Shown one piece after another: positions 3,970 to 21,175 of a DNA stretch of 64,000 bases. The position numbers and the translations under genes are program-made. The DNA is taken from assembly GCA_963744145.1 (NCBI GenBank), contig CAVUSO010000001.1, forward strand, positions 4,256,001-4,320,000, in the 5' to 3' direction. Each line of letters opens with the position of its first letter. Position 1 is the first letter of the stretch. Source of the DNA: an uncultured cyanobacterium (GTDB taxonomy: Bacteria; Cyanobacteriota; Cyanobacteriia; Cyanobacteriales; CAWUOF01). Under the pieces are notes generated by a model. The model had not been told where the DNA came from, made no database searches, and saw only the letters and a list, made by a program, of their open reading frames with translations.

Positions 3970-6298
3970 CTATTTTGCACGTATTCCGGTAGGACTCGGT
4001 AAGGTGAGAGTAAAAGCAGTCTGACCTGGTGGGGTGCGATCAATCTTTAAATCACCACCATGTGCCCGGGCAATTTCTCGTGATAAACTAAGTCCTAAAC
4101 CAGTACCCTCAATTTGACGGTTACGTGCTGATCCACCTCGATGAAAACGTTCAAAAATTTGTTTGTGTTCACTAATTGGAATAGTCTCAGAACTATTACT
4201 GACTGTAACACAGACCGTAAAACCATAAAGTTTGGCTTCAATCCGGACCCAACCAGAGGGTAAGTTATATTTAATCGCATTAGTCAAAAGATTCTGTAAG
4301 ACCTGGACTATTAAATCGCGATCGCCCCAAATTTTTAAATTTTGCCCAATCTCACTTTGCAATTCTAGTTCAGGAGCAAGAATTTCTAGATCATCAGTTA
4401 AATCGACTAACATCTTAGATAAATCCATTTCAATTGCGTGTAAACGCATTTGTCCAGCATCAGCTAAGGAGAGGAGTAAGAGCTTACGAACAATGGTACT
4501 TAAGCGACATACTTCATCGAGGAGATGACTAAATTTTTGCTGAAGTTCGGAACCGGAATCAACTTGTTGGAGAGCGCATTCCAATTCTCCCTGTAAAATT
4601 GCTAAGGGGGTTTTTAGTTCATGAGCTGCATCAGCACTAAAACGTAAAGCTTGTTTAAAACTACGTTCTAATCGTCCCATCATCTGATTAAATACTTTCA
4701 GTAATTCCACAAATTCCAGAATCTGCTGTACCGATCGCAATCCTTTGATCTAATCCTTTAGCGGTTACTCTTTTAATCTTACCCGTAACTTCATGTAAGG
4801 GTTTAAGCGCACGTCCCGATAACCACCAAGCTCCCAATGCTACCAAAATTAGAGCGACGGGAATGGAAATCAAAAAAATATTACCAATCGTATTCATTTC
4901 CCGATCGATCAAGATTAAATTAATCGCGATCGCAATGCGTATTCCGGGAGTTGTCACTGCTCCAACTCGCCAATAACCGCTCAGAGTCTTTTTGGTAAAA
5001 AAATTAATATGATGGGGAATATTTTCTGGTGGTGGTAATTCTTCCGGAAGTGGGTTTACTGGTAACTGGGATGGGTGCCGAAAACTATCTCCTGGTGTGG
5101 GTGAGGAAGATGGTTTTTTCGGTGTTGAATTTAAAGTTGGATCTCGTTTTTCCGGAATCTCAGCAGATGGTAATTGTTTATTTGTTTCTAAATTTGAAGT
5201 TGGATAGGATTTTTCTTCAATTCCGTGAGAAGAAGATGGATTTTTCTCCACTGAGTTTGGTGCTGATTCCCTTCTTTCTTGAATTTCAATAACAGAAGAT
5301 TGTTTATTATGGATGGGGGTTGGTACTGGCTTTGGTTTTTCCGAGATACTAGGAGAGGGAGACGGTTTTTTCTCAACTGGACTCGGTACTGGCTTTGGGT
5401 TTTCCGGGATACTAGGAGAGGGAGACGGTTTTTTCTCAACTGGACTCGGTACTGGCTTTGGGTTTTCCGGGATACTAGGAGAGGGAGACGGTTTTTTCTC
5501 AACTGGACTCGGTACTGGCTCTGGTTTTTCCGGGATACTAGGAGGGGAAATCGGTTCTGGTTTTTCTGAATTTGGTGCTGGGGTTTGTTCTCCAGGGATT
5601 TCTGGTGGAGGAAATTGTCTTTCTCCTGGGGGATTAGATGGGGAAATGGGTTGACTGGGAATTCCTGGTGGAGGAAATTGTCTTTCTCCTGGGGGATTAG
5701 AGGGAGAAAAAGGTTGATCGGGAATTCCTGATGGAGGAAATTGTCTTTCTCCTGGAGGATTAGAGGGAGGAAAAGGTTGACCAGGAATTCCTGGTGGAGG
5801 AAATTGTCTTTCTCCTGGGGGATTAGAGGGAGAAAAAGGTTGATCGGGAATTCCTGGTGGAGGAAATTGTCTTTCTCCTGGAGGGTTTTGGGGTGGATGT
5901 GGTTGGATTTGAGGGAAGAAAATTTTTAAGGGATCGGCAAATAAAGATAATTCGAGACTAGATAATAGGGGAAATAATTTAGTTTGATCCAGATCAACGG
6001 GCCAACTCTGGGATTGATATAATACTTGTTCAGCATTATCAACCACGAGCAAAGCTACCCCACGTTCAGAACTAACATTAAAAAAAGACGGTAAATCGGC
6101 TTTGTATAATGACCAATGACTGATGGGACGAGGAGGATGGGACTCTCGTAACAACTGACTGGTAATTTCACTGTCAAGACGAGCAACTTTACTTTTATAA
6201 ATAAGTAACCAGGACGCAATTCCAAAACCGATTAGGGTACTACCTGCTAATAAGACGGAGAGGAAAGCAATCCGGAAACGGAAAGAACGTAACTTCAC
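3970..6298 (-). CDS. HAMP-domain sensor histidine kinase with long Pro-rich extracytoplasmic repeats; +1 frameshift near 4720
   Basis: Two TM segments, HAMP, H-box FSADAAHELKTPL, NLLTNAIKY, GTGLGL; removing one T in GAT-T-CTG-GAA joins the two ORFs. Confidence 0.85.
5316..5545 (-). repeat. 63-bp coding tandem repeat (PSPVEKKPSPSPSIPENPKPV), about 3.5 copies
   Basis: Visible in both DNA and protein. Confidence 0.9.
5600..5885 (-). repeat. 63-bp coding tandem repeat (PPGERQFPPPGIPDQPFSPSN), about 5 copies
   Basis: GGAGGAAATTGTCTTTCTCC recurs every 63 bp. Confidence 0.9.
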
Positions 6299-6301
6299 GG
6301 T

Positions 6302-6982
6302 TTAATCTCCTCCGATTTTCCGAAACCGATAACCTACTCCACGGACACTTTCTAGATAGTCAACTCCACCCACTTGCTCCAGCTTTTTTCTGATGCGTTG
6401 AATACAAACATCAACTAGATTAGTATTTGGGTTAAAATCATATCCCCACACATGTTCAAGGATTTGGGTGCGAGTAAAGACCCGACCCGAGGAACGCATC
6501 AGGTATTCTAAGAGGTTAAACTCACGGGTAGTTAATTCGACGGACTGTTGATTATAGGTAACTTCACGAGTAATCCGATCGAGTTTTAGTGGTCCAGCAC
6601 TTAAGATATTTTGCCGATCGCCCGTCACTCTTCGGATTACTGCATGAATCCGAGCAATTAGTTCTTCGACAAAAAAAGGTTTAGATAAATAGTCATCAGC
6701 ACCAAAATTTAGTCCTTCTAGTCGATCGTTTAATTCATTGCGAGCTGTCAGTAAAATTACTGGTACATTCCGACCACTACGACGTAAGCTTTTGAGGATG
6801 AATAATCCATCCTTACCGGGAAGCATGATATCAAGCACAATTACATCATACTGATTCTCCATCGCCCGATTATATCCTTCATCACCATTATCCGTATAAT
6901 CAACGAGGAATCCCTGTTCTTTTAGTCCAGCACAGACAAAGCTGGCAATTTTCGCTTCATCTTCACAATAGAGAACATTCAT
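6302..6982 (-). CDS. OmpR/PhoB-family response regulator
   Basis: Receiver (EDE, LDIMLP, GADDYLSKPF) plus winged helix (SVRGVGY). Confidence 0.95.
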   Translation of the reverse strand: MNVLYCEDEAKIASFVCAGLKEQGFLVDYTDNGDEGYNRAMENQYDVIVLDIMLPGKDGLFILKSLRRSGRNVPVILLTARNELNDRLEGLNFGADDYLSKPFFVEELIARIHAVIRRVTGDRQNILSAGPLKLDRITREVTYNQQSVELTTREFNLLEYLMRSSGRVFTRTQILEHVWGYDFNPNTNLVDVCIQRIRKKLEQVGGVDYLESVRGVGYRFRKIGGD

Positions 6983-7039
6983 TTGCAGAATTAATGATTG
7001 CGATTATACCCTATTCTAGCTCAATTTGACACCAACTTA

Positions 7040-7057
7040 AATTACAAAAATGTAATT
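7040..7057. promoter_or_regulatory. Palindromic operator candidate AATTACA-N4-TGTAATT in the divergent promoter
   Basis: Perfect 7-bp arms between the regulator and spy-like gene; further TGTA half-sites follow. Binding by the regulator is inferred. Confidence 0.5.
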
Positions 7058-7207
7058 CAGCCATGTATAGAGATGTAATTTTTAGGTTGCTTAATGAAAT
7101 TATCGGGAAGAGGAAAGCCAAAAACGCAAATAAAGGTCATCTTCTTCTGCTTCAGTAAAATCACTTTCTTTCCCTCTATAAACTGCAACTATTTCAGGAG
7201 AATACTG

Positions 7208-7720
7208 ATGAAATTACGGAACTTAGTTTGTGTAGGAATTGTCTCACTGTTTATTCCTGTTAGTAGTCATCTTGCTTTTGCTCAATCCGAATTAAGTCAG
7301 ACTCAATCAAATTCAACTCCTGTTGATTCTAGTAATCAGAATTCCCCTTGTCCTCCTCCACCAACTATGGGTGGAAAGGGACCTGAAGGTAATGCTTTAC
7401 CACCTTGGTCTAAAGATATTAATCTGAGTAATCAACAAATAGAACAGATTAAAACACTCCACGAACAATCTCAAAAAGATACGGAAAGTTTACGACAACA
7501 ACTCCATCAAGCTGAAGACCAAATGCGATCGCTGTTAGAAAGTGATGCTCCGATGGATAAGTTACAGCAACAACATCAACAAATTCAAACCCTACGTCAA
7601 CAACTTGATGATAAACATTTCCAAATGATGGTAGCTGAAAATAAGCTTTTAACTCCCGCTCAACGTAGTCAAATTAGCAAATTTATGCAGCAACATCGTC
7701 CTCCTCAACCACCAATGTAA
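7208..7720 (+). CDS. Spy/CpxP family periplasmic protein
   Basis: Signal peptide (..HLAFAQ), INLSNQQ and LLTPAQR LTXXQ-type motifs, Gln-rich helices. Confidence 0.85.
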   Translation: MKLRNLVCVGIVSLFIPVSSHLAFAQSELSQTQSNSTPVDSSNQNSPCPPPPTMGGKGPEGNALPPWSKDINLSNQQIEQIKTLHEQSQKDTESLRQQLHQAEDQMRSLLESDAPMDKLQQQHQQIQTLRQQLDDKHFQMMVAENKLLTPAQRSQISKFMQQHRPPQPPM

Positions 7721-7785
7721 TTTATCTTTTATCACCTTATCTTGCTCAAAAACAACTTTGTCATTACCTAAATCGGAGAAAAAAG

Positions 7786-8028
7786 ATGTCAGCTTTTACT
7801 ACTTTATCAATCACGGAAGATGGATTTGCTTTCGACTCAAAAACTGGCGAAAGCTATATTTTAAACAGTTGCGCTCAATTGGTGATTAAAGGTTTACAAA
7901 AAGGCGAAAATCGTCAAGATATCATTCACAATCTGGCACGGGAATTTGGGGTCACTCAAAATACAATTGAACGAGATATTGCCGACTTTTTTGGACAACT
8001 CAATAGTTTAGGAATGTTCACTAACTAA
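7786..8028 (+). CDS. Stand-alone PqqD family / RiPP-recognition-element protein
   Basis: 80 aa; FDSKTGESYILN..I..L..G...I...LAREF.V....IERDIADF pattern; GGAG RBS. Confidence 0.85.
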   Translation: MSAFTTLSITEDGFAFDSKTGESYILNSCAQLVIKGLQKGENRQDIIHNLAREFGVTQNTIERDIADFFGQLNSLGMFTN

Positions 8029-8087
8029 GCTGAGGAAAAGTTGGTTGGAAATAATAAATAAACAGAATAATTCAGAGGAGGAAATCA

Positions 8088-9128
8088 ATGAGACATCCAA
8101 CCATAGCTGTTACGGGGATTAATGCGGTAGATAATCCTGGTCCTGGGACAGGAGTTGCCCGAAGTTTACGCGAAGATCAAGAATTATCAATGCAAATTGT
8201 TGGTCTAGCTTATGACGCAATGGAACCAGGGTTATATATGGATTGGCTATTCGATCGCCGTTATATTATGCCATATCCTGCGGCTGAACCGGAAGTTTCT
8301 TTAGAACGATTAGAACAAATTCAGTCACAATTTGGACTTGATTGCATTATCCCTAATTTCGATCTCGAATTACCCCTTTACATTCGTTATGCTCAGGAGC
8401 TAAAAGCACTCGGAATTCACACTTATCTACCTACTAAAGCTCAATTTGCGCTCCGTAATAAAGCGAATTTGACTGAAGCTGCGAAAAATTTTGGAGTAGA
8501 GACACCCAAGACTATTGTAGTAAGTTCAGTACAGGAATTGCAGGAAGCGACCAAAGAATTAGGGTTTCCCTTAATGATTAAAGGACCCTATTACAAAGCT
8601 TACAAAGTTTCTAGCAATCAAGAAGCATTACATCGCTTTTATCACTTAGCTAATGAATGGGGATATCCCATCATTGTGCAACAGATAGTGAGTGGAATTG
8701 AATTGAATTTAGTCTCAGTTGGGGATGGTAAAGGGAGTCACCTCGGTTTAGTCGCAATTAAAAAGATGGGGGTGACAGATTTAGGGAAAATCTGGAGTGG
8801 TTTAACGATTCATCATCCTGGGTTATTAAAAGTTGCGGAAAACTTTCTTCAACATACCCAATGGAAAGGTCCGTTTGAACTCGAATGTATCGCGGATGTG
8901 GATGGAACTATCTATCTGATTGAAATTAACCCTCGATTTCCAGCATGGACTTATTTTGCTACAGGAGTGGGAGTTAATTTACCTGCTCGATTAGTCCGAG
9001 CTGCTCTAGGATTACCTTTACCTCCCTTAGAACCCTATCCCGTCGGTAAATTATTGATGCGTTATACCTACGAAATGGTCATGGACGCAACCCCTCTACA
9101 AACCTTAGTAACCATCGGAGAAAGATAA
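8088..9128 (+). CDS. ATP-grasp ligase (carboxylate-amine ligase-like)
   Basis: GFPLMIKG, IIVQQ, GPFELE, LIEINPRF motifs; GAGGAGG RBS. Confidence 0.9.
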   Translation: MRHPTIAVTGINAVDNPGPGTGVARSLREDQELSMQIVGLAYDAMEPGLYMDWLFDRRYIMPYPAAEPEVSLERLEQIQSQFGLDCIIPNFDLELPLYIRYAQELKALGIHTYLPTKAQFALRNKANLTEAAKNFGVETPKTIVVSSVQELQEATKELGFPLMIKGPYYKAYKVSSNQEALHRFYHLANEWGYPIIVQQIVSGIELNLVSVGDGKGSHLGLVAIKKMGVTDLGKIWSGLTIHHPGLLKVAENFLQHTQWKGPFELECIADVDGTIYLIEINPRFPAWTYFATGVGVNLPARLVRAALGLPLPPLEPYPVGKLLMRYTYEMVMDATPLQTLVTIGER

Positions 9129-9129
9129 A

Positions 9130-10506
9130 ATGTTAGCTCAATACGAAAAACCCGCAATCAAAAAGTTACAAAGTGGATTGATGAATAAGTTTGCTGGAGC
9201 AAGTTCACCACGTCGTAATGTGAAAACGGAAATAGCTGGAATTACGATCGATGATTTAGTTGCTGAGTTTGGTTCACCTCTATTTGTTTATTCTGAGCGA
9301 TCGCTCCGTCGGAAATTCCGGACAATTAAAAGTGCTTTCACTACCCGTTATCCTGATGTGACTTTTGGTTGGTCTTACAAAACTAATTACTTAAAAGCGA
9401 TTTGCGCTATTATGCACCAAGAAGGTGCGATCGCTGAATTGGTTTCCAAAATGGAATATGACAAAGCTAAAGCATTAGGTATTCCGGGAAATCAAATCAT
9501 TCTCAACGGTCCCCACAAACCCTTAGCTACCCTAGAAGCAGCAGTTTTAGATGGAGTGACAATCAATATTGATCATTTAGATGAAATTGACGACTTAGAA
9601 ACGATCGCTACTAAACTAGGACGCACAATTACCGTCGGATTAAGACTAAATCTGGATGTAGGAATTCAACCAAAATGGTCACGATTTGGATTTAATTTAG
9701 AGTCAGGTCAAGCATTAGAAGCAGTGCGACGAATTGCTAAGGGTGGAAAGCTACGTTTGAATGGATTACATAGCCATATTGGCACATTTATCCTTGAACC
9801 TAGTGCTTACGGTCGTCAAGTTGAGAAAATGGTGAAATTTGGTTATGAAATCGAAAATCTGTTTAATTGGAGAATGGATTATATCGATATCGGTGGTGGT
9901 TTTCCCTCTCGGAGTCGTTTAAAAGGTATCTATCATTCTGCTGAAGTAATGTTACCATCAATTGATGAATTTGCTGATGCGATTTGTGACGCTTTATGGG
10001 CAAATCTCAAACCCGGACATACCCCCAAACTGATTATTGAATCCGGACGAGCAATGGTGGATGAAGCAGGTACACTAATCTCAACAGTTTGGGCAAATAA
10101 AACTTTACCTGATGGTACTCCTGCGTATGTAATTGATGCGGGAATTAACCTACTCTTTACTAGCTTTTGGTATCGGTTTGATATCGCACTCGATCGCCAT
10201 GTTTCTGGTTCTGCTCAAAACTCAGTCATTTACGGACCGATGTGCATGAATATTGATGCGATCGATGAAGGAATCTCTTTACCACCTTTACCAAGAGGTA
10301 CAAGACTGGTAATTTCCACAGTTGGAGCTTATAACAATACTCAATGGATGCAATTTATTGAATACCGTCCTAACATTGTTCTCATCAGTGAAAGCGGTAA
10401 TGTTGAATTAATTCGTGAAGCAGAAGACCTCAGTGATTTAGAACGACGGGAACATTTACCAGCTCGATTAAGTCCGATCGCGAATTTATCTACTCGGACT
10501 CATTAA
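9130..10506 (+). CDS. PLP-dependent Orn/DAP/Arg decarboxylase family protein (LysA-like)
   Basis: SYKTN (PLP Lys), SRFG, HSHIG, DIGGGF, ESGR, GPMC, GAY motifs. Confidence 0.9.
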   Translation: MLAQYEKPAIKKLQSGLMNKFAGASSPRRNVKTEIAGITIDDLVAEFGSPLFVYSERSLRRKFRTIKSAFTTRYPDVTFGWSYKTNYLKAICAIMHQEGAIAELVSKMEYDKAKALGIPGNQIILNGPHKPLATLEAAVLDGVTINIDHLDEIDDLETIATKLGRTITVGLRLNLDVGIQPKWSRFGFNLESGQALEAVRRIAKGGKLRLNGLHSHIGTFILEPSAYGRQVEKMVKFGYEIENLFNWRMDYIDIGGGFPSRSRLKGIYHSAEVMLPSIDEFADAICDALWANLKPGHTPKLIIESGRAMVDEAGTLISTVWANKTLPDGTPAYVIDAGINLLFTSFWYRFDIALDRHVSGSAQNSVIYGPMCMNIDAIDEGISLPPLPRGTRLVISTVGAYNNTQWMQFIEYRPNIVLISESGNVELIREAEDLSDLERREHLPARLSPIANLSTRTH

Positions 10507-10521
10507 TTTCTTCTATCTGGT

Positions 10522-10548
10522 GTAGTAAGCGTTCAAAACGCTTACTAC
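10522..10548. repeat. Intergenic hairpin GTAGTAAGCGTT-caa-AACGCTTACTAC
   Basis: 12-bp perfect stem within the operon; could be a REP-like element or an mRNA stabiliser. Confidence 0.5.
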
Positions 10549-10595
10549 CAAGTACATCTACTTTCATCACCTCAATCATTAGCGGAGTTAAAAAT

Positions 10596-12824
10596 ATGCT
10601 AGGTTTGCGCTACGAATCAATCCTAGACCTGGTTACCTTCACCACCGAAAAAAGTAAAAATTCTACTTTTCTACCCATCAAAATTTTTACCAAATTAGTC
10701 CAATTCTGTCAACCTTTAATTCTAGCATTATGTGCTGCAACTGCGGAAATTCTTTTTTTGCGTGGTGTCGGGACAGGGGCACTTTTACTAACAGCGATGC
10801 TCCTCCAACCAGCAGTTTTATTAATGGGAATAACCGGAGTAATCGCAGCAGTTACCTTTGCTAAAATTGCTCAACTTGGACAGAACTATCTCGATCGAGG
10901 TCCATTTCTCTTTAACCCACTTCTAGCAGGTTTAAGTGTCGGTTACCTATTTCAACCAGGAGCAGCTTCTTTATTTCTCGCTGGAGTAGCAGGAATATTA
11001 GCTTTTATTCTCACCTGGACTCTATCCCATATCTTCCGAACTTTCTTATTTTTACCTGTCTTAAGTTTACCCTTTATCATCGTCAGTTGGGTAGTACATC
11101 TAGCTGCATTTCGTTATGCTGGATTACAACCAGCAATTATTCCTGCTCATGTTTATTCCATTGGTTTACCAATCTGGATGGAAGGATTCTTGAGAACTTT
11201 AGGGTTGATTTTTTTCCTCCCTAATATCTGGGTAGGAATTGTCGTCGCAGGATTACTATTAGTCAACTCACGCATCCAATTTTTATTAGCAATAGGTGGT
11301 TATGCGTTAGGAACTTCCATTCGCGGTATTCTCACAGGAACATTTATTTATGTCTATTATGATCCAGCAGCATTAAATTTTGTATTAGTTGCATTAGCGA
11401 TCGGTGGTTTTTATCTCCTTCCCTCCATCCGAAGTTATGCGATCGCAGGTTTAGCAATTGGATTAGTTGCAGTATTAAGCGAAGCAGTGAGTGTATTTTG
11501 GGCAGCTTCTGGGTTACCAGTTCATGCGTTACCTTATAATTTAGTCACCTTATTATTGTTGTATGTATTGGGATTAGTAGGATATCGTTGGTTAACTAGA
11601 TATCCTCAACCAACTCCAGAACAAACTCTCGATTATGAATTAACTGCTCGATTAAGATATCAAGGTACGGGAAAAACAATTTCCTTACCTTTTTCTGGTC
11701 GTTGGTTAGTTTGGCAAGGTTTTCATGGTCAATGGACTCATCAAGGTTTGTGGTGTTATGCTTATGATTTTGTGATTCAAGATGAGTCTGGTTCTACTTA
11801 TCGTGATGATGGATTTAATCTGAAAGATTATTATGCTTATGGTAAACCAATCCTCTCTCCAGTTCGAGGTTGGATCGTTCGAGTCATTAGTGATTTACCA
11901 GATTGTGCGATCGGTAATATTGATCAGGAACATAATTGGGGTAATCATATAATTATTTACGATGAACGAGGTTTTTATGTCGAAATATCCCATTTTGCTC
12001 AACATAGCATTACCGTAAAATCAGGCGATCGCGTAGAAATTGGCACTTTATTAGGTCGTTGTGGTAATTCTGGTTATTCTTCCCAACCACATATTCATAT
12101 TCAAGTCCAACTTAGCGCCGAATTAGGTGCAGCAACAGCACTATTTAGTTTTGCTAATCTGATGGTAGATGGTGAATTTAGAGCCGAAGCTACCCCATCA
12201 GAAAATACTATATTAGAACCAGTAGCAAGCGATCGCGCTCTCGCTAAAGCTTTAACTTTCCCCCTTGATTCTAGTTTCGATTTTACTGTTACTCAAAAAG
12301 AAAAAATCGTTGATCATCTCTCTTTAACTACCCGGATCACAGGAGATGGTTGGTTTTATCTAGATTCGGGTAAAGCCAAATTATACTTTAGTCGAGATGA
12401 GTACGGATTTATCTTTCATCGATTAGATGGTAATGATCCTAACTTAGCCTTATTATTAACAGCAATTCCTCGATTACCCCTAGCTAGACGTGAACCCGGA
12501 AATACATGGTCTGATTATCTTCCCGTCGGGATGATGATTACTGGAATTCGACAAATGGTTTACTTATTTGCTAGTTCCTTTGTACCAGAGTTAGCTTCAG
12601 CTCGCTATACTGGTGAATGGATTTCAAATGAAACTTTAGTAGGAGCAGTCACCATCCCAGGAATCAAGAATAAAGTATTGACATCTGCTACTTTTGCTCA
12701 AAATGGAGAAATTCTCAGAGTCGGTGTCGGTCAGCGATCGCTAGTACGTCAAGATTTACAGGTTGTCACCCAGAAATCCCACCGTTGTTTAGGAGTCGGG
12801 ATGAATGGAAGTACCGTTGGTTAG
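10596..12824 (+). CDS. Urea transporter (UT) family membrane domain fused to an M23 peptidase domain
   Basis: About 10 hydrophobic segments with duplicated FNPLL/LNFVL and LPVLSLPF/LPVHALPY UT-type motifs; C-terminal H..YAYD, WGNHII, GNSGYSSQPHIH M23 motifs. Confidence 0.8.
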   Translation: MLGLRYESILDLVTFTTEKSKNSTFLPIKIFTKLVQFCQPLILALCAATAEILFLRGVGTGALLLTAMLLQPAVLLMGITGVIAAVTFAKIAQLGQNYLDRGPFLFNPLLAGLSVGYLFQPGAASLFLAGVAGILAFILTWTLSHIFRTFLFLPVLSLPFIIVSWVVHLAAFRYAGLQPAIIPAHVYSIGLPIWMEGFLRTLGLIFFLPNIWVGIVVAGLLLVNSRIQFLLAIGGYALGTSIRGILTGTFIYVYYDPAALNFVLVALAIGGFYLLPSIRSYAIAGLAIGLVAVLSEAVSVFWAASGLPVHALPYNLVTLLLLYVLGLVGYRWLTRYPQPTPEQTLDYELTARLRYQGTGKTISLPFSGRWLVWQGFHGQWTHQGLWCYAYDFVIQDESGSTYRDDGFNLKDYYAYGKPILSPVRGWIVRVISDLPDCAIGNIDQEHNWGNHIIIYDERGFYVEISHFAQHSITVKSGDRVEIGTLLGRCGNSGYSSQPHIHIQVQLSAELGAATALFSFANLMVDGEFRAEATPSENTILEPVASDRALAKALTFPLDSSFDFTVTQKEKIVDHLSLTTRITGDGWFYLDSGKAKLYFSRDEYGFIFHRLDGNDPNLALLLTAIPRLPLARREPGNTWSDYLPVGMMITGIRQMVYLFASSFVPELASARYTGEWISNETLVGAVTIPGIKNKVLTSATFAQNGEILRVGVGQRSLVRQDLQVVTQKSHRCLGVGMNGSTVG

Positions 12825-12983
12825 GGACAACAAGCGGACAAATAATTTGACACTCGACAATTGCCATATTATTTTTGTTCGCAGCGTAGGTTGTATATGT
12901 GGTTAAATGTAATGAGAGAGTCGGTGCCAAGAAAATTTGCGGAAATGACTTTCCTTCCAGATAAAATATAAACCTCTGTATTT

Positions 12984-13100
12984 GAGGAGCGACGAGAGCA
13001 AATTATTACTGCGATCGAGAATTGGTGGAATAAATATCGAGTGACGTTGCGTGAGATTGAAACTGAACGGGATACAGCAGCAAAGCGATTAGATGCTTAA
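12984..13100 (+). pseudogene. C-terminal remnant resembling a type I R-M methyltransferase (HsdM) tail
   Basis: REQIITAIENWWNKYRVTLREIETERDTAAKRLDA*; recognised from memory. Confidence 0.5.
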
Positions 13101-13123
13101 AGTAAGTGAATTGAGGAAAGCTG

Positions 13124-13339
13124 ATGAAAGTTAAAGTAACAGAACAAGGTGTAGTCATTCCCAAAGATTTTCTAGAGGGAGTTGAAGAGGTAGAAATCCG
13201 TAAGGAAAATAATATTATCTTTGTGATAGTAACTAATAAAACAGATCCAATTTTTGAGATGGGAATAAATCCTGTAAACTGCGGAGTTTCTGATGCGTCT
13301 GAAAATTTAGATAACTATATTTACGGTTCTATTGAATGA
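13124..13339 (+). CDS. AbrB/MazE-like putative antitoxin
   Basis: KVTEQGVVIPK motif; stop overlaps the start of a PIN toxin gene. Confidence 0.65.
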   Translation: MKVKVTEQGVVIPKDFLEGVEEVEIRKENNIIFVIVTNKTDPIFEMGINPVNCGVSDASENLDNYIYGSIE

Positions 13340-13533
13340 ATAGAGTTTTTTTAGATACGAGTTATATTATCGCTTTATAAACAGCCGATGATAATTATTA
13401 TCGGACATTAAAACATTGGCAGGATTTGATTAAAGAACCACCAAAATTAGTAACTACATCTTATATTTTTGACGAAATGGCGCCATTTTTTAATAGTCGA
13501 AATCGTCATCATAAAGCTGTGCTAATCGGTTAA
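13336..13533 (+). pseudogene. VapC/PIN toxin, in-frame stop and 3' truncation
   Basis: MNRVFLDTSYIIAL*TADD...TTSYIFDE. Confidence 0.75.
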
Positions 13534-14104: not shown

Positions 14105-14314
14105 ATGAAAGTTAATCTACCCAAGGAACAACAAGTGATCCAAGAAGCCCTGCAAATTCTCTATGCTCACATGACCCCACTCAAAGTCGCCCGCTTTATC
14201 ACCGCTTGTCAGCTAGGCGAAGGAGACTATCTCCAAACCAAAGACGAACTGTTTGTCGATGAAACCGTAGATAGTTTGTGTGACAAGATTAAAGCCTTTA
14301 AGCAAGGTAAATAG
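14105..14314 (+). CDS. Small hypothetical protein, probable antitoxin partner of the PIN fragment
   Basis: 69 aa; ALQIL...ARFI...GEGDY pattern; RBS present. Confidence 0.55.
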   Translation: MKVNLPKEQQVIQEALQILYAHMTPLKVARFITACQLGEGDYLQTKDELFVDETVDSLCDKIKAFKQGK

Positions 14315-14424: not shown

Positions 14425-14694
14425 GCGAGGCGATCGCAGTGAAACAATAATAAAGATGCAACAATCGCGTGAGCTGATTCGCAGTTATGCCGCTTATGCT
14501 CTGAGTGCCTTTAAGAATTTTAGTGCAGCAGACATAGAAGAAATTACCCTGAAATTTGGGTTAAATATTGGTGGTAAAGCCGGAATTCCTTTTATCACAG
14601 AAGGAACTGCCGAAAGCAATTTAGAAATCGAAGTTAAATATAAATTTTCTAAGGCGACTTAAAAAAAATTAAATAAAAAACGATTAACTGTTAA
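14425..14694 (+). pseudogene. 5'-truncated duplicate of the CU044_2847/Trypco1 gene and its downstream flank
   Basis: Near-identical to 20938-21207; begins at a HIP1-containing junction. Confidence 0.8.
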
Positions 14695-14738
14695 GTGCTT
14701 TTTTATTGGTATTCGAGGAAGGCGATCGCTCCAAATGT

Positions 14739-15659
14739 ATGACCAATGATTTTCCCATCTTGTTTGTTACGGAAAAAGCTTATGAAGAATCCTCGAATGA
14801 AATTTTAGGGAGCAAGTATAAGTTTTGGTTCTATCACGAAGAATTTGGTCGTTGTCTTTACAAACAAAACCGAGTCAACTTGGGAGAAGATTGGGCAGAG
14901 AAAGTCGCATCAGAATTGTGTGAATTAATCGGACTTCCTCACGCTGTTTATGAATTGGCTTCAACTTGGAAAGGCGATCGCGGTGTAATTTCACCCAACT
15001 TTTTACCACAAGGGGGGACGCTTGTACATGGTAACGAACTGCTTACTTCAATTGTGCCAAATTACCTAACATTTAGCACCTACGGCGCATCACAACATAC
15101 AATTGATGTAGTTTTAAGAGTTATTGCAGGCAGTTCTGTAAATTTACCCATTAATTGGACACCGCCCTCTGGTATCCAAAAAGCAGTGGATGTATTTGTT
15201 GGCTATCTTTTGTTAGATGCGTGGATTGGTAACGGAGATCGTCACCATGAAAACTGGGGGATTGTCCGAATAAAACCGTCATCTACTTCAGAAGAAATGG
15301 AACACTTAGCACCTACTTACGATCATGCCTCAAGTTTAGGACGTGAACTCTCTGATGAAAAAAGGCAGAAACGATCTATACTGGATTATACCGACAAATG
15401 TTTTTCAGCGTTTTATGGTAGTGTTGATGATAAAAAGAGCCTGAAAGTTTTTGATACATTCTCCCAAGTTGTTCATCGTTATCCCCAAGCAGCTAGTGTG
15501 TGGTTGACGCGACTTGAAAATATATCAGAAGCCAATATATTAGATATTTTTAATCGCATTAATTGCTCACGGATCTCTCCCAATGCCAGTAATTTTGCTC
15601 AAAAAATTCTGGAAATTAACAAACACAGGATACTAACCTTATGGGAAACACTACCTTAA
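14739..15659 (+). CDS. HipA-like Ser/Thr kinase
   Basis: LGSKYKFW loop, LYK, EDWAEK, DAWIGNGDRHHENW, LAPTYDHASSLG. Confidence 0.85.
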   Translation: MTNDFPILFVTEKAYEESSNEILGSKYKFWFYHEEFGRCLYKQNRVNLGEDWAEKVASELCELIGLPHAVYELASTWKGDRGVISPNFLPQGGTLVHGNELLTSIVPNYLTFSTYGASQHTIDVVLRVIAGSSVNLPINWTPPSGIQKAVDVFVGYLLLDAWIGNGDRHHENWGIVRIKPSSTSEEMEHLAPTYDHASSLGRELSDEKRQKRSILDYTDKCFSAFYGSVDDKKSLKVFDTFSQVVHRYPQAASVWLTRLENISEANILDIFNRINCSRISPNASNFAQKILEINKHRILTLWETLP

Positions 15660-16650: not shown

Positions 16651-19600
16651 TCATTTCCATTGATTACAAACTTCTTTTATAGAATCAACTACACCTCGCA
16701 TAGCTGTTTCTTCACCTAATGAAATAATAGCAGGATAAAGAGTTACTAAGTTTTTTATAAAGTCTTGTCTATTAGTAGATGCTAGGATGTGAAGATATAA
16801 CTTCCAATCAGAGAATGATAAATTAGATAAATCAAGACTATGGAGAAAACCATTGATTGCTTTTGCTTGATTTGGTTTAGAATTTATCTTAAAAATCTCA
16901 TTTTTCACTTGAGATAATAATTGTTCAGGTACGAATTTACTTAGACCATTCAATACCTCTGCCCGACTGGATTCATCCTGAATAGTGCGTGCCGCATCCA
17001 AGGCTTCGGCAAAATAGGCCCTATCAATCTGAGCAAGGGAACTCAATACCTCTGCCCGACTGGATTCATCCTGAATAGTGCGTGCTGCATCCAAGGCTTC
17101 GGCAAAATAGGCCCTATCAATCTGAGCAAGGGAACTCAATACCTCTGCCCGACTGTATTTATCCTGAATAGTACGTGCCGCATCCAATAAAACTGAGAAA
17201 TCTGCACCATCAATCTGAGCAAGAGATCTCAATACCAATGCCCGAAGGGATTCAGACTGAATAGCGCGTGCCGTATCCAATAAAACTGAGAAATCTGCAC
17301 TATCAATCTGAGCAAGAGATCTCAATACTAATGCTCGAAGGGGTTCAGACTGAATAGTGCGTGCTGCATCTAATGCTTCTCCAAAATAAGCACTATCAAT
17401 TTGAGCAAGGAATCTCAATACCTCTGCCCGACTGTATTTATCCTGAATAGCGCGTGCCGCATTCAATAAAACTGAGAAATCCGCACTATCAATCTGAGCA
17501 AGGGATCTTAATACCCATGCCCGCAAGAATTTATCCTGAATAGTGTGTGCCGCATCCAATAAAACTGAGAAATCCGCACTATCAATCTGAGCAAGGGAAC
17601 TCAATACCTCCGCCCGAATAGATTCAGACTGAATAGCGCGTACTGCATCCAATGCTTCGGCAAAATAGGCCCTATCAATCTGAGCAAGGGAACTTAATAC
17701 CTTTGCCCGAATAGATTCATCCTGAATAGCGCGTGCCGCATCCAATGCTTCTGTAAAACAGGCACTATCAATCTGAGCAAGGGAACTCAATACCTTTGCC
17801 CGAAGTGCCCGACGGGATTCATCCTGAATAGCGCGTGCCGCATCCAATGCTTCTGTAAAACAGGCACTATCAATCTGAGCAAGAGAACTCAATACCCATG
17901 CCCGAAAGGATTCATCCTGAAGAGCGCGTGTCGCATCCAATGCTTCGGCAAAATAGGCCCTATCAATCTGAGCAAGAGAACTCAATACTAATGCCCAAAT
18001 GAATTGATCCTGACTAGCTTGTGCTGCATCCAATGCTTCTGTAAAATAGGCATTATCAATCTGAGCAAGAGAACTCAATACTAATGCCCGATTTTTTTCA
18101 TCCTGAATAGCGCGTGCTGCATCTAATGCTTCGGTAAAATAGGCCCTATCAATCTGAGCCAGGGCACTCAATGCCTCTGCCCGATTTTTTTTATCCTGAA
18201 TAGCGCGTGCTGCATCCAATGCTTCGGTAAAATAGGCCCTATCAATCTGAGCCAGGGCACTCAATACTTCTGCCCGATTGGATTCATTCTGAATAGCGCG
18301 TGTCGCATCCAATGCTTCGGCAAAATAGGCCCTATCAATCTGAGCCAGGGCACTCAATGCCTCTGCCCGATGGTATTCATCCTGAATAGCGCTTATTTTT
18401 GTTAAAGCCTTCTTAAATAATGGTTTGGAAAAATAACAACATAATCCCTTAATCCATTCGGCTATTTTATGTTCATCTTGCATTTGCTCTACATAAGCCC
18501 AAGCTTGCTCTATTGTCCAAAATTTACCTTTGACAAATTCTTTGATCATGTCAATCGGTAGGTTTTCCAATAAACTGTTTAATGTTGCTGTAATTAAGGC
18601 ATACCGATATTGCAGAACAATAGAGCGGGTTTTGTCTTGCTCATATTGTTGTTCGGCGATCGCCCAAGCTCTAGCCACATCTTCCACAAAAATTGCTGGT
18701 TGACCAAGGCGATCGCAAGTTTCAAACCAAGCATTATGTCCTAAGCGATCGCTACTACCTAGAAGAGTATGAATTTCATCAATCCAACCAGCTTGCTCTA
18801 AGTGCCAAGTCAACTGACGATGAATATATCCATCATTCGGTAAATTATACCAAGATTTTTCCTCAGTTTTTTCTCGGTAACGTTCTAGAAATTGTTGATG
18901 AGCCAAAGATAAGCAAGAACAATTTTTATCCCTAGAGCCTAGAGAATTAAGCTTACCTTCTTCAATCAGACTCCGAGCCATATCGTGCATAAGGTCGTGG
19001 ATACGATAGGTTGGCTCATCCTCTAATGTAGTAACACCATCAGTCAGAAAAGAACGGTGTCGCAATAATGACAATCTTTGTTTAACTTGCACATTAGACG
19101 ACAAATTCCACAGAACCGAAGCAACCTCTAGGGTAAGATTAACATCTTCTGGCAAAATACCTAACCAGGCAAACTGTTCTAACTGTTCCTGATTCAGCCG
19201 CTTTAAACTTAAGTTGAAACAAACTTCCAAACTATGTTTACGCTGTTCTTGCTCATCTAAATCTTCCCATCTTTCCGATGACTGTAAAAGTTTAAATACT
19301 CTAGAAAACTCAGCCTTAAATTCAGCTCGTAATTCCGCCCAAGTTGAACCATCTTTGATTAAGTTAATCGCTAAATCCAGAGCTAATGGCAAATATCCCA
19401 ATACCTGAGCAAAGGCTTTTGCTTCTATTTGATCAGCATCTTTCCAATCTTTGCCTAACTTTCCTTTAATCAGTTCTAACGCTTCATCTTCGCTCATCAA
19501 ATCTAAAGAATAGTAATCAGCCTGAGCAATTCTTGCTTCCCTAGTTGTCACCAATACCCGACAACCTTCACCACCCACCTGAAACCATTTAGCATGATCT

Positions 19601-20754
19601 GCATTCCACACATCATCTACTACCAGCAACATTTGTTTTTCTGCTAACAAAGTTTGTAAATACTGAGTAGCTGATTCCTTAGTATTTGCACTAAATGCTT
19701 CCCGCGATCGATCAAGCTCTCGAATCCAATCCCCTAATAACTTCTGTAAATCCGGTTTTTGTCCTAAAGTTACCCAGAGAATTCCATCTTCAAACCGAGC
19801 ATTTACTTCTGGATCTCGCACTAGAGCCGCAGCTAAAACTGACTTTCCTAAACCTCCTAATCCAGCGATCGCGGTTACTACCAGAGTTTGTCCATTTCTG
19901 CCCAGAAGTTTTTCTTTTACTGCTTTGAGAGCATCTAACCGTTCCACGTAATTTTCTGGTAAGGGAATATGGGGAAACGACTTAGATTTCTGAGGTTTTC
20001 TTTGAGTAGAATAATTGAGAATGGGAATAGGTCGTCCACTGAGCAGGTGAACGGGTTCTTGACCACTTCCCTTTAATTGAATACAAATAAAAACGGTTAG
20101 TATACCAGCATAAATATTGCCATCATCAGCAGCTTGTTCCGGTTGGAGTCCTTGCAGCAACGCTTTAGTAAAAAGACCATGCTCTTGATCTTCATAAGCC
20201 TTTTCTTCGGCTCTACAAGCTGTAATTAAACAATAGTCAGGCTGACGATTAAAGCTTTTTAAAGTTGACTGTACTAAATCTTTGCTGAAGGTCTCAAGTA
20301 AAGCTCCTGCATGACAGCAATCTAAGAGAATTACTAAACTGCTGAGATCAGAATCGCTCACCAACTTATTCAAATCTTCTAATCGAATCAGCGTTTCCAT
20401 ATCTTTTTTAGCAGAATTGGAAGCAGCGAGAAAACCTTGTTTTTCTCCAGAAAGAGTAGTTATTTGAAAACCATGTCCTGCATAATAAACTAGAGCATCT
20501 TTCCGAGCAGCTTTTTCGAGCAGAAAAGTTTTTAGAGTTTGATAGAGATCGGCAGCTAGAACTTTTTGTGAGATAATCTCATAACGACTTTTCTCATTAA
20601 CCCATTTACAAGGAAACCGGACAACCTCTTGAAAAGCTCCAGACCGTTCTAGCAATTGAGCCATTTCCTCCGCATCAGTAACCGCTTTCTTTAAGGAAGG
20701 GAAACTAGGAGAGTCATATTGAGAAATACCGATTACCAGTGCATATCGCGTCAT
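16651..20754 (-). CDS. Caspase (peptidase C14) - NB-ARC (STAND) NTPase - helical repeat protein, NLR-like
   Basis: ALVIGISQY, YAGHG and LDCCHAG dyad; Walker A GLGGLGKS; Walker B LLVVDDVW; VLVTTR; GYLPLAL; IHDLMHD; C-terminal 31-aa repeats. Confidence 0.9.
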   Translation of the reverse strand: MTRYALVIGISQYDSPSFPSLKKAVTDAEEMAQLLERSGAFQEVVRFPCKWVNEKSRYEIISQKVLAADLYQTLKTFLLEKAARKDALVYYAGHGFQITTLSGEKQGFLAASNSAKKDMETLIRLEDLNKLVSDSDLSSLVILLDCCHAGALLETFSKDLVQSTLKSFNRQPDYCLITACRAEEKAYEDQEHGLFTKALLQGLQPEQAADDGNIYAGILTVFICIQLKGSGQEPVHLLSGRPIPILNYSTQRKPQKSKSFPHIPLPENYVERLDALKAVKEKLLGRNGQTLVVTAIAGLGGLGKSVLAAALVRDPEVNARFEDGILWVTLGQKPDLQKLLGDWIRELDRSREAFSANTKESATQYLQTLLAEKQMLLVVDDVWNADHAKWFQVGGEGCRVLVTTREARIAQADYYSLDLMSEDEALELIKGKLGKDWKDADQIEAKAFAQVLGYLPLALDLAINLIKDGSTWAELRAEFKAEFSRVFKLLQSSERWEDLDEQEQRKHSLEVCFNLSLKRLNQEQLEQFAWLGILPEDVNLTLEVASVLWNLSSNVQVKQRLSLLRHRSFLTDGVTTLEDEPTYRIHDLMHDMARSLIEEGKLNSLGSRDKNCSCLSLAHQQFLERYREKTEEKSWYNLPNDGYIHRQLTWHLEQAGWIDEIHTLLGSSDRLGHNAWFETCDRLGQPAIFVEDVARAWAIAEQQYEQDKTRSIVLQYRYALITATLNSLLENLPIDMIKEFVKGKFWTIEQAWAYVEQMQDEHKIAEWIKGLCCYFSKPLFKKALTKISAIQDEYHRAEALSALAQIDRAYFAEALDATRAIQNESNRAEVLSALAQIDRAYFTEALDAARAIQDKKNRAEALSALAQIDRAYFTEALDAARAIQDEKNRALVLSSLAQIDNAYFTEALDAAQASQDQFIWALVLSSLAQIDRAYFAEALDATRALQDESFRAWVLSSLAQIDSACFTEALDAARAIQDESRRALRAKVLSSLAQIDSACFTEALDAARAIQDESIRAKVLSSLAQIDRAYFAEALDAVRAIQSESIRAEVLSSLAQIDSADFSVLLDAAHTIQDKFLRAWVLRSLAQIDSADFSVLLNAARAIQDKYSRAEVLRFLAQIDSAYFGEALDAARTIQSEPLRALVLRSLAQIDSADFSVLLDTARAIQSESLRALVLRSLAQIDGADFSVLLDAARTIQDKYSRAEVLSSLAQIDRAYFAEALDAARTIQDESSRAEVLSSLAQIDRAYFAEALDAARTIQDESSRAEVLNGLSKFVPEQLLSQVKNEIFKINSKPNQAKAINGFLHSLDLSNLSFSDWKLYLHILASTNRQDFIKNLVTLYPAIISLGEETAMRGVVDSIKEVCNQWK
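16950..18390 (-). repeat. About 15-16 coding repeats of 93 bp (31 aa) with high internal identity
   Basis: Consensus AYFAEALDAARAIQDxxxRAxVLSSLAQIDR; AQID occurs 15 times. Confidence 0.9.
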
Positions 20755-20818: not shown

Positions 20819-21175
20819 ATGTCCGAGATTCAAAAAATGCTATATACCGATGAAGATGGTAAAGAGTACGAAATCCTGATAGAAAATAAATCAGCAGTCA
20901 ATCTTCCTGATGCTGATGTTGATGAAGGACGTGGTTCGCGAGGCGATCGCAGTGAAACAATAATAAAGATGCAGCAAGCTCGTGAAATGATTCGCGGTTA
21001 TGCAGCTTATGCTCTGAGTGCCTTTAAGGATTTTGGGGTAGCAGAAATAGAAGAAATTACCCTGAAATTTGGGTTAAAGATTGGTGGTAAAGCCGGAATT
21101 CCTTTTATCACAGAAGGAACTGCTGAAAGCAACTTGGAAATCGAAGTTAAATGTAAATTTCCTAAGGGGACTTAA
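20819..21175 (+). CDS. CU044_2847 / Trypco1-like small protein, divergent from the caspase-NLR gene
   Basis: EEITLKFGLKIGGKAGIPFITEGTAESNLEIEVKC signature. Confidence 0.75.
   Translation: MSEIQKMLYTDEDGKEYEILIENKSAVNLPDADVDEGRGSRGDRSETIIKMQQAREMIRGYAAYALSAFKDFGVAEIEEITLKFGLKIGGKAGIPFITEGTAESNLEIEVKCKFPKGT

Follow-up and report, generated by a model that had tools for sequence, protein, structure and literature searches.

A conserved PqqD, ATP-grasp, decarboxylase and urea-transporter/M23 gene cassette in an uncultured cyanobacterium, probably yielding a small amine-bearing compound at the cell membrane

We analyzed a group of genes from an uncultured cyanobacterium (CAWUOF01; assembly GCA_963744145.1, contig CAVUSO010000001.1, positions 4,256,001-4,320,000). 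The window, here always the whole stretch of 64,000 nucleotides (nt), provides the positions given throughout. Five open reading frames (ORFs) in the ORF list of the window lie at 7208-12824 on the + strand, all in one direction. The last four of them form a real, tightly packed gene set, which we call the cassette; it encodes a PqqD-like protein, an ATP-grasp ligase, a pyridoxal 5′-phosphate (PLP) decarboxylase and a membrane protein that joins a urea-transporter (UT) fold to an M23 peptidase. The cassette probably yields a small amine-bearing compound, released at the cell membrane. Its genes and their domains are:

7786-8028, + strand: stand-alone PqqD-like protein, 80 aa, of the type of the recognition element (RRE) of RiPPs (peptides made by the ribosome and modified after translation) (Pfam PqqD)
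8088-9128, + strand: ATP-grasp carboxylate-amine ligase of the CPSase-like subfamily, 346 aa (Pfam CPSase_L_D2)
9130-10506, + strand: PLP decarboxylase of the alanine-racemase fold, FigC/FslC-like, 458 aa (Pfam and structure matches)
9142-9192, + strand: conserved N-terminal extension of the decarboxylase, residues 5-21 (orthologue alignment; low model confidence)
10596-12824, + strand: inner-membrane fusion of a UT-fold channel, an M23 metallopeptidase and a C-terminal half-barrel, 742 aa (Pfam and fold)
10692-11567, + strand: UT (urea-transporter-fold) membrane domain of the fusion, residues 33-324 (alignment to 3k3f)
11667-12221, + strand: metallopeptidase domain of the M23/LytM fold, residues ~358-542, probably cytoplasmic (AlphaFold2 (AF2) model and fold matches)
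12243-12758, + strand: C-terminal open beta-barrel domain, residues ~550-721, family-specific (VIA fold matches)

The stop codon of the ligase gene ends at 9128 and the ATG of the decarboxylase gene stands at 9130, leaving a gap of 1 nt; the remaining intergenic gaps are 65, 59 and 89 nt. For the first of the five genes, which lies outside the core, the start was taken as the ATG at 7208, with AGGAG just 5′ of it, the longest ORF beginning at 7094. An earlier reading, made from the letters and ORF translations and referred to here as the sequence-only reading, had described five tightly spaced genes of one direction with a 1-bp gap between ligase and decarboxylase. The ORF list agrees with this description, and Pfam and NCBIfam searches recovered every domain that it had named. 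An Rfam scan of 6500-13500 gave two chance-level matches only (E 0.3 and 0.43) and no riboswitch or other RNA element, the counts of a promoter and terminator scan of 6900-13300 were not above the shuffled expectation, and the PADLOC models of anti-phage defence returned no family for the four core proteins at E≤0.001.

To learn how far the arrangement is conserved we relied on a scan of one genome per species, which gave 380 confirmed loci; the best 80 of these 380 were kept and are the basis of all locus counts below. The core order PqqD - ATP-grasp - decarboxylase - UT/M23 is kept in loci of more than ten phyla. PqqD stands directly upstream of the ligase in 76 of the 78 loci whose upstream sequence is long enough, the decarboxylase comes after the ligase in 70/73 loci with more than 1.5 kb downstream, and the UT/M23 fusion follows the decarboxylase in 58/62 loci with more than 4 kb downstream, so that the synteny across phyla on which the sequence-only reading had staked its case is indeed found. 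Start and stop codons of the cassette genes often overlap in the examined loci. As the same order recurs in 80 examined loci of many phyla, the arrangement is not due to chance. The record titles name Cyanobacteriota, Verrucomicrobiota, Gemmatimonadota, Melioribacter/Ignavibacteria, Calditrichota, Planctomycetota and Aquificota, and further Desulfofervidaceae, Cloacimonadota, Lentisphaerae, Armatimonadota, Rhodothermales and Burkholderiales. The exceptions to the order are few: a truncated cyanobacterial locus (L017), a lone ligase amid housekeeping genes (L095), a locus with no decarboxylase match between ligase and UT/M23 (L064), and two with no UT/M23 within more than 4 kb downstream (L033 and L080).

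Within single phyla the cassette is much less common. Of 301 genomes sampled from the window's phylum, 4 have the ligase, the window's own included, and the cassette is thus rare in cyanobacteria; among 40 relatives a true orthologue was present in one (81% identity), the other matches being weak paralogues. The decarboxylase occurred in 14 of 201 genomes of the phylum of a Melioribacter metagenome-assembled genome (MAG), that MAG included. The distribution of the cassette is widespread but patchy. Cassette proteins, the ligase among them, share 52-58% identity across phyla.

The PqqD protein scored 41.1 bits with Pfam PqqD, over the cut-off, and its best NCBIfam match was the lasso-peptide PqqD chaperone NF033530, at 42.1 bits versus a cut-off of 70. 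The role of a LysW-type C-terminal carrier was considered for this protein and ruled out because its C-terminus is not conserved. In two other loci (L053 and L088) a long PqqD-containing ORF has at its beginning part of a second copy of the N-terminal strands of PqqD. For the ligase, CPSase_L_D2 was the only Pfam family to exceed its cut-off (25.4 vs 19.8), ATPgrasp_Ter (26.2) and ATP-grasp (22.7) both staying under their own, and the NCBIfam matches of the PRK12767 type lay far under theirs. The nearest solved chain was 2pn1 (E 5.8e-18), and 3534 proteins matched the ligase at E≤1e-10. K165, E279, N281 and R283 are invariant, and the protein carries a DNPGPG motif near its N-terminus. Regarding membership in the graspetide macrocyclase clade, the best matches were CPSase-like PRK12767 models and 2pn1, in a model set that holds no graspetide-specific model.

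The decarboxylase scored 105 bits with Pfam Orn_Arg_deC_N and 40.6 bits with Orn_DAP_Arg_deC, and 208.4 bits with the LysA model TIGR01048, under the cut-off of 297.9. A search of the same genome placed it fourth of five TIGR01048-family matches (208.2 bits) and revealed a true lysA elsewhere, at 478.8 bits and over the cut-off. A housekeeping LysA is ruled out by the low score together with this separate lysA, a gene that the sequence-only reading had proposed to look for. The match to the FslC/FigC model NF041039 reached 204.5 bits versus a cut-off of 500. By sequence the nearest solved structure was 7kh2, the N-citrylornithine decarboxylase FigC/FslC (E 1.5e-49), as compared with 7.1e-37 for the best diaminopimelate (DAP) decarboxylase, and 7kh2 was also the best match by fold (Foldseek E 4e-36, template-modelling score 0.87-0.89). 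WSRFGF is common to the cassette decarboxylase and FigC, where DAP decarboxylases have S-K-F-G or N-K-F-G, and the catalytic Cys loop reads C372-M-N in the cassette protein and C-M-Q in FigC, as opposed to C-E-T in 2p3e and C-E-S in 1tuf, both DAP decarboxylases. The PLP and catalytic residues K84, H216, G255-G257, E304, R307, C372 and Y401 are invariant across orthologues. The available part of a study on FigC reports that its Cys loop and specificity helix determine substrate choice, that its clade comprises SbnH, AcsE, MccE, BtrK, DAP decarboxylases and D-ornithine decarboxylase, and that FigC, SbnH, AcsE, MccE and BtrK act on an amino-acid moiety already attached to something (PMC7857480). 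Since the cassette decarboxylase is nearest to FigC/FslC and shares the C-M-(N/Q) loop, ligation first and decarboxylation afterwards is, by analogy, more likely than the formation of an amine followed by its ligation. The latter order, put forward in the sequence-only reading, is not borne out, as a FigC-like decarboxylase would favour ligation first.

Some 28 residues at the N-terminus of the decarboxylase lie outside all LysA and FigC alignments, which begin at residues 27-37. This tail carries the motif Y-E-K-P-x-I-x-x-L-x-x-G-x-x-N-K-F (residues 5-21), of which P8, G16, N19 and K20 are invariant in 44 orthologues, at least 90% of which retain Y5, E6, K7, I10, L13 and F21. Among the orthologues from the phylum of the Melioribacter MAG (13 at 47-52% identity and one at 87%), [YF]-x-[RK]-P was found in 14/14 and K-F-G in 12/14. 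In the AF2 model the core is confident, residues 1-30 have mean predicted local distance difference test (pLDDT) values of 52, 41 and 49 in successive blocks, and secondary structure begins no earlier than residue 27. With its Y-x-x-P-x-I spacing the tail conforms to the lasso leader motif YxxPx[L/I]. YxxPxL is the leader motif of actinobacterial lasso peptides, and the lasso leader region contacts the B1 RRE via conserved hydrophobic residues, as described in an excerpt of PMC6784204. As no precursor gene was found (see below), the YEKPxI tail is a candidate ligand of PqqD and the most likely one, a proposal that we infer from the motif.

The fourth protein combines three domains. It scored 159.1 bits with Pfam UT (PF03253; cut-off 25) and 40.6 with Peptidase_M23 (PF01551; cut-off 28.7), so that both family assignments hold, and such UT+M23 proteins make up ESM Atlas clusters of 701, 56 and 60 members. 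Residues 33-324 align with the whole fold of the Desulfovibrio UT 3k3f (13-310; E 7e-15) and retain the two LPxxxxP(F/Y) repeats; the equivalog model urea_trans_yut of NCBIfam (TIGR03441) gave 89.3 bits, under its cut-off of 274.6. In Bacteroides thetaiotaomicron the UT family matches were all under the cut-off, and this species was therefore set aside as a model host. Residues 335-742 were modelled with AF2 on the basis of 51 orthologues, at a pLDDT of 92.2. Residues 24-208 of this model form the M23 domain, with VIA Z scores of 12-15 to DipM, EnpA, LytM, lysostaphin and others and a Foldseek E of ~1e-6 (probability 1.00). H382, D391, H466, H499, H501 and C489 are invariant in 59 sequences; H466, H499 and H501 stand in canonical context and the first motif reads H382-x8-D391. 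Catalytic motifs had been pointed out in the sequence-only reading, and they are present here and invariant across orthologues of the ligase and the decarboxylase, as are H382, D391, H466, H499 and H501 of the M23 domain.

The C-terminal domain (model residues 216-387) gave VIA Z scores of 9.2 with vitellogenin, 8.3 with ApoB, 7.9 with the Parabacteroides lipoprotein BDI_3050, 6.3 with MucB, 6.1-6.2 with LolA and ~6 with YmcC; these values are middling, and we therefore speak of a resemblance to open beta-barrel folds only. A profile search with this domain among 1.84 billion representatives returned 346 matches at E≤1e-3. About half of the best 150 of the 346 are proteins of ~650-810 aa that have the domain near their C-terminus, as UT-M23 proteins do; the remainder comprises shorter pieces and longer fusions. 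The UT domain has Lys- and Arg-rich flanks on both sides. Natural fusions of ~1075 aa (P0140 and P0153) run from UT, M23 and the C-terminal domain through an Arg-rich stretch and a transmembrane segment into tetratricopeptide repeats (TPR). Because of these positively charged flanks (the positive-inside rule), the TPR fusions and the signal peptides on stand-alone TPR proteins, the M23 and half-barrel tail is probably cytoplasmic and the TPR part periplasmic. The sequence-only reading had the product processed or moved by a channel-peptidase fusion: the UT-M23 fusion is there, but as its tail is probably cytoplasmic, any cutting would take place inside the cell. A survey from 2026, in the part available, lists UT-M23 fusions without explaining them (PMC12998343).

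Two further observations concern the same protein. A 1029-aa homologue (P0162) has UT, M23 and a partial C-terminal domain followed by more hydrophobic segments and TPR repeats, and Pfam assigns it two UT stretches. In the window itself, 22100-22276 (within the ORF 22084-22296, + strand, 70 aa) is a 177-nt copy, 98% identical, of the segment 11443-11619 of the UT/M23 gene; it covers the end of the UT domain and the linker, lies 10.6 kb downstream of the gene, and looks like a gene fragment left by rearrangement or insertion.

An RRE protein raises the question of its peptide, and we looked for a precursor gene in several ways. When the 1.5 kb upstream of PqqD was taken from all loci and its ORFs of 18-140 aa were clustered, no conserved small ORF emerged; the clusters listed were shadows of the two-component genes of the cyanobacteria, read out of frame. 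The ORFs of ~95-320 aa directly upstream of PqqD in non-cyanobacterial loci are mutually unrelated, except for a 114-aa protein of the Melioribacter group and TPR proteins in L061 and L087. Neither of two intra-cassette gaps that we checked (L076 and L023) holds a peptide gene; they contain inserted genes that look GIY-YIG-like and SnoaL-like by eye. No short protein with the decarboxylase N-terminal motif was found, which is weak evidence, as the search needs three shared 5-residue words. The claim that no precursor peptide gene lies nearby thus stands for the 1.5 kb upstream of PqqD and the two gaps, and with no precursor gene adjoining it the cassette is not a standard graspetide cluster, again as the sequence-only reading had it.

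Outside the cyanobacteria the cassette often has company. In 37 of the 60 non-cyanobacterial loci a related + strand gene, or a pair of them, accompanies it; these stand downstream of UT/M23 in 34 of the 37 and upstream of PqqD in 3. Both encoded proteins have a signal peptide: one is barrel-like, ~290 aa long and ends in a C-terminal aromatic residue, and the other is a TPR protein of ~210 aa. Loci of the Verrucomicrobia type have, directly 3′ of UT/M23, a gene that encodes TPR fused before the barrel-like part (~490 aa), and a separate TPR gene still comes after it. The barrel-like protein matched no Pfam family and had no relative in the PDB by sequence, and 3/15 members gave weak matches to outer-membrane proteins (OMPs) or porins; it is a candidate outer-membrane barrel on account of its signal peptide, its C-terminal aromatic residue and these OMP or porin matches. 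As UT/M23 is fused to TPR in some lineages and TPR to the barrel in others, the inner-membrane protein appears linked to the TPR protein, and the TPR protein to the barrel. A search of the window's own genome returned no barrel homologue and, for TPR, nothing beyond generic matches that do not exceed 44 bits, and for this reason we regard the cyanobacterial form as the four-gene core.

In cyanobacteria the cassette adjoins genes of another kind:

7208-7720, + strand: Spy/CpxP/ZraP-like periplasmic protein with a signal peptide, accessory and outside the core (Pfam Metal_resist)
6302-6982, - strand: OmpR-family response regulator, divergent from the operon (Pfam Response_reg and Trans_reg_C)
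3970-6298, - strand: partner sensor histidine kinase, in two ORFs by a frameshift near 4720, with a Pro-rich repeat insertion (orthologue alignment)

The Spy-like protein exceeds the cut-off of Pfam Metal_resist (37.2 vs 29.2), falls just under that of LTXXQ (24.1 vs 24.3) and reaches 36.9 bits with NCBIfam Spy versus a cut-off of 174. Its gene occurs in 14/20 cyanobacterial-type loci and in none of the 60 others (E≤1e-5). The response regulator is closest in NCBIfam to the heavy-metal subfamily CztR/SilR/CopR (TIGR01386/TIGR01387; 230.6 bits vs 279.2) and the kinase, taken as its L024 orthologue, to the heavy-metal sensor kinase subfamily (247.4 vs 292.55), both under the cut-offs. Fifteen cyanobacterial-type loci include PqqD together with no less than 2.5 kb of upstream sequence, and in all 15 an orthologue of the regulator (at least 387 bits) lies upstream of the cassette, with an orthologue of the kinase alongside it. 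Elsewhere, a Burkholderiales locus (L036) has a similar regulator and kinase, an Alcaligenaceae locus (L084) has a similar kinase, and L039, L055 and L065 have more distant OmpR-type pairs upstream. Four genomes without the cassette carried the regulator-kinase pair in 4/4 cases and the Spy-like gene in 2/4, among unrelated neighbours. As it occurs without the cassette, the two-component module is an independent unit that the cassette adjoins. The first of the five genes, counted as part of the set in the sequence-only reading, does not belong to it: it travels with the divergent two-component system, also where the cassette is absent.

The kinase of the window is split into two overlapping ORFs on the - strand (4688-6298 and 3970-4740). 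The intact 543-aa orthologue from L024 matches frame -1 as far as residue 297 and continues in frame -2 with residue 298, the change lying near 4720; the split kinase is either a pseudogene or a sequencing error. In its sensor region, ~590 nt of Pro-rich repeats (PPGERQFPPPGIP-like units) take the place of ~18 residues. A Verrucomicrobia locus encodes, 14 nt 5′ of PqqD (L047:6986-7732), a secreted EF-hand protein with an LTxxQ-like helix that resembles the cyanobacterial Spy-like gene. In two cassette-less cyanobacteria a gene of the arginase/agmatinase family lies a few kb from the two-component module (L107:3351-4391 and L108:4890-5819); this proximity of a urea-forming family is possibly mere shared synteny.

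Other features of the window lie downstream of the cassette. A 273-nt direct repeat with 92% identity (14425-14697 and 20938-21210) flanks a HipA-like gene, a 264-aa ORF and a large gene for a 1367-aa protein; each copy encodes a similar C-terminal peptide of ~68 aa, and the repeats possibly mark the edges of an inserted island. The HipA-like ORF, so named by eye (14706-15659, + strand, 317 aa), is followed by the overlapping 264-aa ORF and preceded by small ORFs at 13124-13339 and 14105-14314, which may be antitoxin-like; the former has no Pfam match. The 1367-aa protein (16651-20754, - strand) shows by eye an N-terminal caspase-like region and P-loop-like motifs, and 14 overlapping, register-shifted repeat copies with a period of 93 nt (31 aa) were seen at 16867-18477.

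Taken together, these data lead us to a tentative mechanism, to which we assign a probability of about 0.35. In the cytoplasm the ATP-grasp ligase would join an amino acid, via its side chain, to the carboxylate or amine of a partner, perhaps a small acid, perhaps a peptide arm, and the joined amino acid would keep a free alpha-amino-acid end. The FigC-like decarboxylase would then strip the alpha-carboxylate from the conjugate and leave an amine-terminated amide. On the cytoplasmic side of the UT-fold channel the M23 and half-barrel domains would bind and cut the conjugate at the channel mouth, and the small polar amine or amide would exit through the channel. In other diderm phyla the periplasmic TPR protein and the outer-membrane barrel would carry the route onward, the cyanobacteria being without both. 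PqqD would serve as an adaptor, with the N-terminal YEKPxI tail of the decarboxylase as its most likely ligand. Since the cyanobacterial cassette stands behind a CopRS/CusRS-like system and a Spy/ZraP-like gene, it may respond to envelope or metal stress.

A fuller version of this mechanism, which we consider doubtful, is an RRE system that works without a precursor: PqqD would dock the decarboxylase tail, a ligase-decarboxylase complex would form at the UT mouth, M23 would free a small amine or amide, most diderm phyla would add a conduit across the envelope, and the cyanobacteria a wiring to metal or envelope stress. If true, it would represent a new kind of small-molecule secretion system, with "synthesis at the pore".

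Several points weigh against the proposed mechanism. Each of its steps is argued by analogy. All NCBIfam matches of the four core proteins score under the curated cut-offs, and hence none of these proteins can be named by an equivalog. The idea of YEKPxI as a ligand rests on one short motif, and the low pLDDT of the tail could instead mean that this segment folds only in the dimer. A profile search for PqqD among longer proteins gave 2 matches, neither fused to a cassette enzyme, which is weak evidence. In the M23 domain the usual first-ligand motif is H-x3-D; the spacing here is H-x8-D, so D391 is only a putative zinc ligand. The half-barrel resemblance is weak (Z 6-9). UT channels are passive, the UT pore is narrow, and a peptidase and a lipid-carrier-like barrel on a small-solute channel are hard to explain. 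As to regulation, the regulator has an orthologue in 18 of 301 sampled genomes versus 4 of 301 for the ligase, and the kinase is frameshifted in this genome. Since the loci of cyanobacterial type are closely related (71-82% identity), their shared two-component link may be a single historical event; the adjacency is for this reason a lead for regulation and not a proof of it.

Other explanations were weighed on the same data. One is a pathway for a free small molecule, like that of FigA/FigC: the ATP-grasp ligase, in place of an NRPS-independent siderophore (NIS) synthetase, would link ornithine, lysine or diaminopimelate with a small acid, the decarboxylase would give a diamine amide, and the product would be a metallophore, a polyamine conjugate or an osmolyte, with PqqD purely structural and the M23/half-barrel tail gating or regulating the channel instead of cutting a substrate. 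FigC is indeed nearest both by sequence and by fold, the search for a precursor gene found none, the neighbours of the cassette in cyanobacteria and in the Burkholderiales MAG include a two-component system of heavy-metal type and a Metal_resist protein, and UT fusions to probable regulatory modules (EF-hand, ankyrin) exist, according to the available part of PMC12998343. This account is nevertheless rather unlikely in our view, as the invariant residues of catalytic type favour an M23 enzyme over a degenerate regulatory LytM domain, and a stand-alone RRE kept in 76/78 loci would have no explained role. Another is a RiPP pathway with the precursor encoded elsewhere in the genome, in which PqqD binds the leader, the ATP-grasp enzyme adds an amino acid or a side-chain amide, the decarboxylase trims the residue so added, and export follows once M23 has cut off the leader. 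The best matches of PqqD, a typical RRE, are of the lasso type, a peptidase-exporter fusion recalls the peptidase-containing ABC exporters, and the substrate of MccE, which belongs to the clade of the cassette decarboxylase, is a peptide conjugate (PMC7857480, as far as available). However, no conserved small ORF was found upstream of PqqD in the 80 loci or in the two intra-cassette gaps, and no short protein shares words with the decarboxylase tail motif, which is weak evidence. RiPP precursors are usually variable, and the 52-58% identity across phyla suits one fixed substrate better; moreover, the UT-fold pore is too narrow for a peptide. On balance we consider a RiPP unlikely.

The direction of transport could also be the reverse of that proposed. 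What enters via barrel, TPR protein and UT channel would be a small compound, an amide or urea-like, or else a derivative of a short peptide; M23 would cut it, and ligase and decarboxylase would trap or convert it. UT channels are passive and bidirectional, the envelope chain seen in the fusions has no inherent direction, and ATP-dependent ligation could serve as metabolic trapping. Uptake nonetheless seems quite improbable to us, given that no conserved catabolic or regulatory genes typical of uptake loci stand beside the cassette and that the close relatives of the decarboxylase are biosynthetic, in what is available of PMC7857480. A further candidate is an editing of lipid-linked cell-wall precursors at the inner face of the membrane, where the half-barrel would hold the lipid tail, M23 recognize the stem peptide, the ATP-grasp ligase add a side-chain residue and the decarboxylase act on a free D- or L-amino-acid end. 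M23 enzymes are peptidoglycan peptidases, the C-terminal domain has a resemblance to half-barrels that bind lipids, some ATP-grasp ligases attach side-chain residues to precursors of peptidoglycan, and a module of envelope-stress type adjoins the cassette in cyanobacteria. As to the peptidoglycan precursor that the sequence-only reading names among possible targets of ligation, the data speak neither for it nor against it. We hold wall editing to be very unlikely all the same. It would leave PqqD, the UT pore and the outer-membrane barrel unexplained and depends on half-barrel matches that are weak (Z 6-9), the decarboxylase loop is of the FigC and not the DAP decarboxylase type, and a distribution as patchy as 4/301 cyanobacterial genomes would be unusual for wall chemistry.

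Compared with systems in the literature, the cassette matches no described pathway that we found, and the window holds its cyanobacterial four-gene form. A full-text search of the published literature, in which subscription-only papers fall outside the coverage, found no paper on the cassette or its product, in line with the statement of the sequence-only reading that the gene set has no characterized product; the available parts of PMC8939145, PMC12710340 and PMC9088363 do not describe the cassette. Of the three findings that this reading had held to be fatal to it, a lack of synteny in other genomes, a decarboxylase that is the only lysA and a published product, none came to light. What remains is a ligase family of thousands (3534 proteins at E≤1e-10) and 380 loci in more than ten phyla, with no function found in print. 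The mix of parts is unusual, an RRE without a precursor gene, a conjugate-type decarboxylase and a UT-fold channel with a probably cytoplasmic M23 domain, and to our knowledge these parts are not known to work together. The identity of the product could reveal a new class of metabolite and a new route across the envelope, and would give a function to the UT-M23 fusions that PMC12998343, in its available part, merely lists. The cyanobacterial form, as a minimal four-gene version without outer-membrane parts, is simpler to test, and its CopRS-like neighbour suggests candidate inducing conditions.

The closest chemical parallel is rhizoferrin synthesis by FigA/FigC (FslA/FslC) of Francisella, together with SbnH and AcsE, where an acid is likewise ligated to a side-chain amine and the conjugate then decarboxylated. 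The ligase is an ATP-grasp enzyme in the cassette and an IucA/IucC NIS synthetase in those systems; no match to the latter was found in the five window proteins, nor among the eleven ORFs scanned in the flanks of L068, L077, L047, L055 and L079, which cover only some of the flank clusters. FigC has no counterpart of the N-terminal motif of the cassette decarboxylase (the alignment starts at residue 27), and the rhizoferrin locus (PMC7857480, as far as available) is not known to contain PqqD, a UT/M23 fusion, a TPR protein or a barrel. BtrK of the butirosin pathway is also detectably related to the cassette decarboxylase (7ru7, E 8.8e-18; Foldseek E 7e-29), more distantly than FigC or the DAP decarboxylases. 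In that pathway BtrI, BtrJ and BtrK, a small carrier protein, an ATP-grasp ligase and a PLP decarboxylase of the alanine-racemase fold, act on a tethered glutamate; the small protein is an acyl carrier protein there and a PqqD/RRE protein with a non-conserved C-terminus here, and the butirosin pathway has no membrane channel or peptidase.

With the bacterial urea transporters dvUT and Yut the membrane domain of the cassette shares the whole UT fold and a score above the Pfam UT cut-off, whereas it stays under the equivalog cut-off, is fused to M23 and a half-barrel, and was never found beside urease genes in the loci examined. The likeness to TPR and beta-barrel export modules (PgaA, BcsC, AlgK/AlgE and Slam) is limited to the six-gene form of other phyla, which has a TPR protein with a signal peptide and a barrel-like protein of ~290 aa directly 3′ of the core.

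In its overall composition the cassette recalls the lasso-peptide machinery (B1 RRE, B2 protease, C lactam synthetase and D exporter), as it likewise comprises an RRE, an ATP-dependent amide-forming enzyme, a peptidase and a membrane component. These parts differ in kind: the cassette has an ATP-grasp enzyme instead of an asparagine-synthetase-like cyclase, an M23 peptidase instead of a transglutaminase-like one and a UT channel instead of an ABC transporter, and no precursor gene was found with it; by Pfam and NCBIfam, neither the lasso cyclase nor the transglutaminase-like B2 protease domain occurs in the five window proteins. Its YxxPx[L/I] motif resembles that of the lasso leader but sits on an enzyme and not on a peptide, and if the RRE does bind an enzyme tail rather than a precursor, the scope of RRE-based genome mining would widen.

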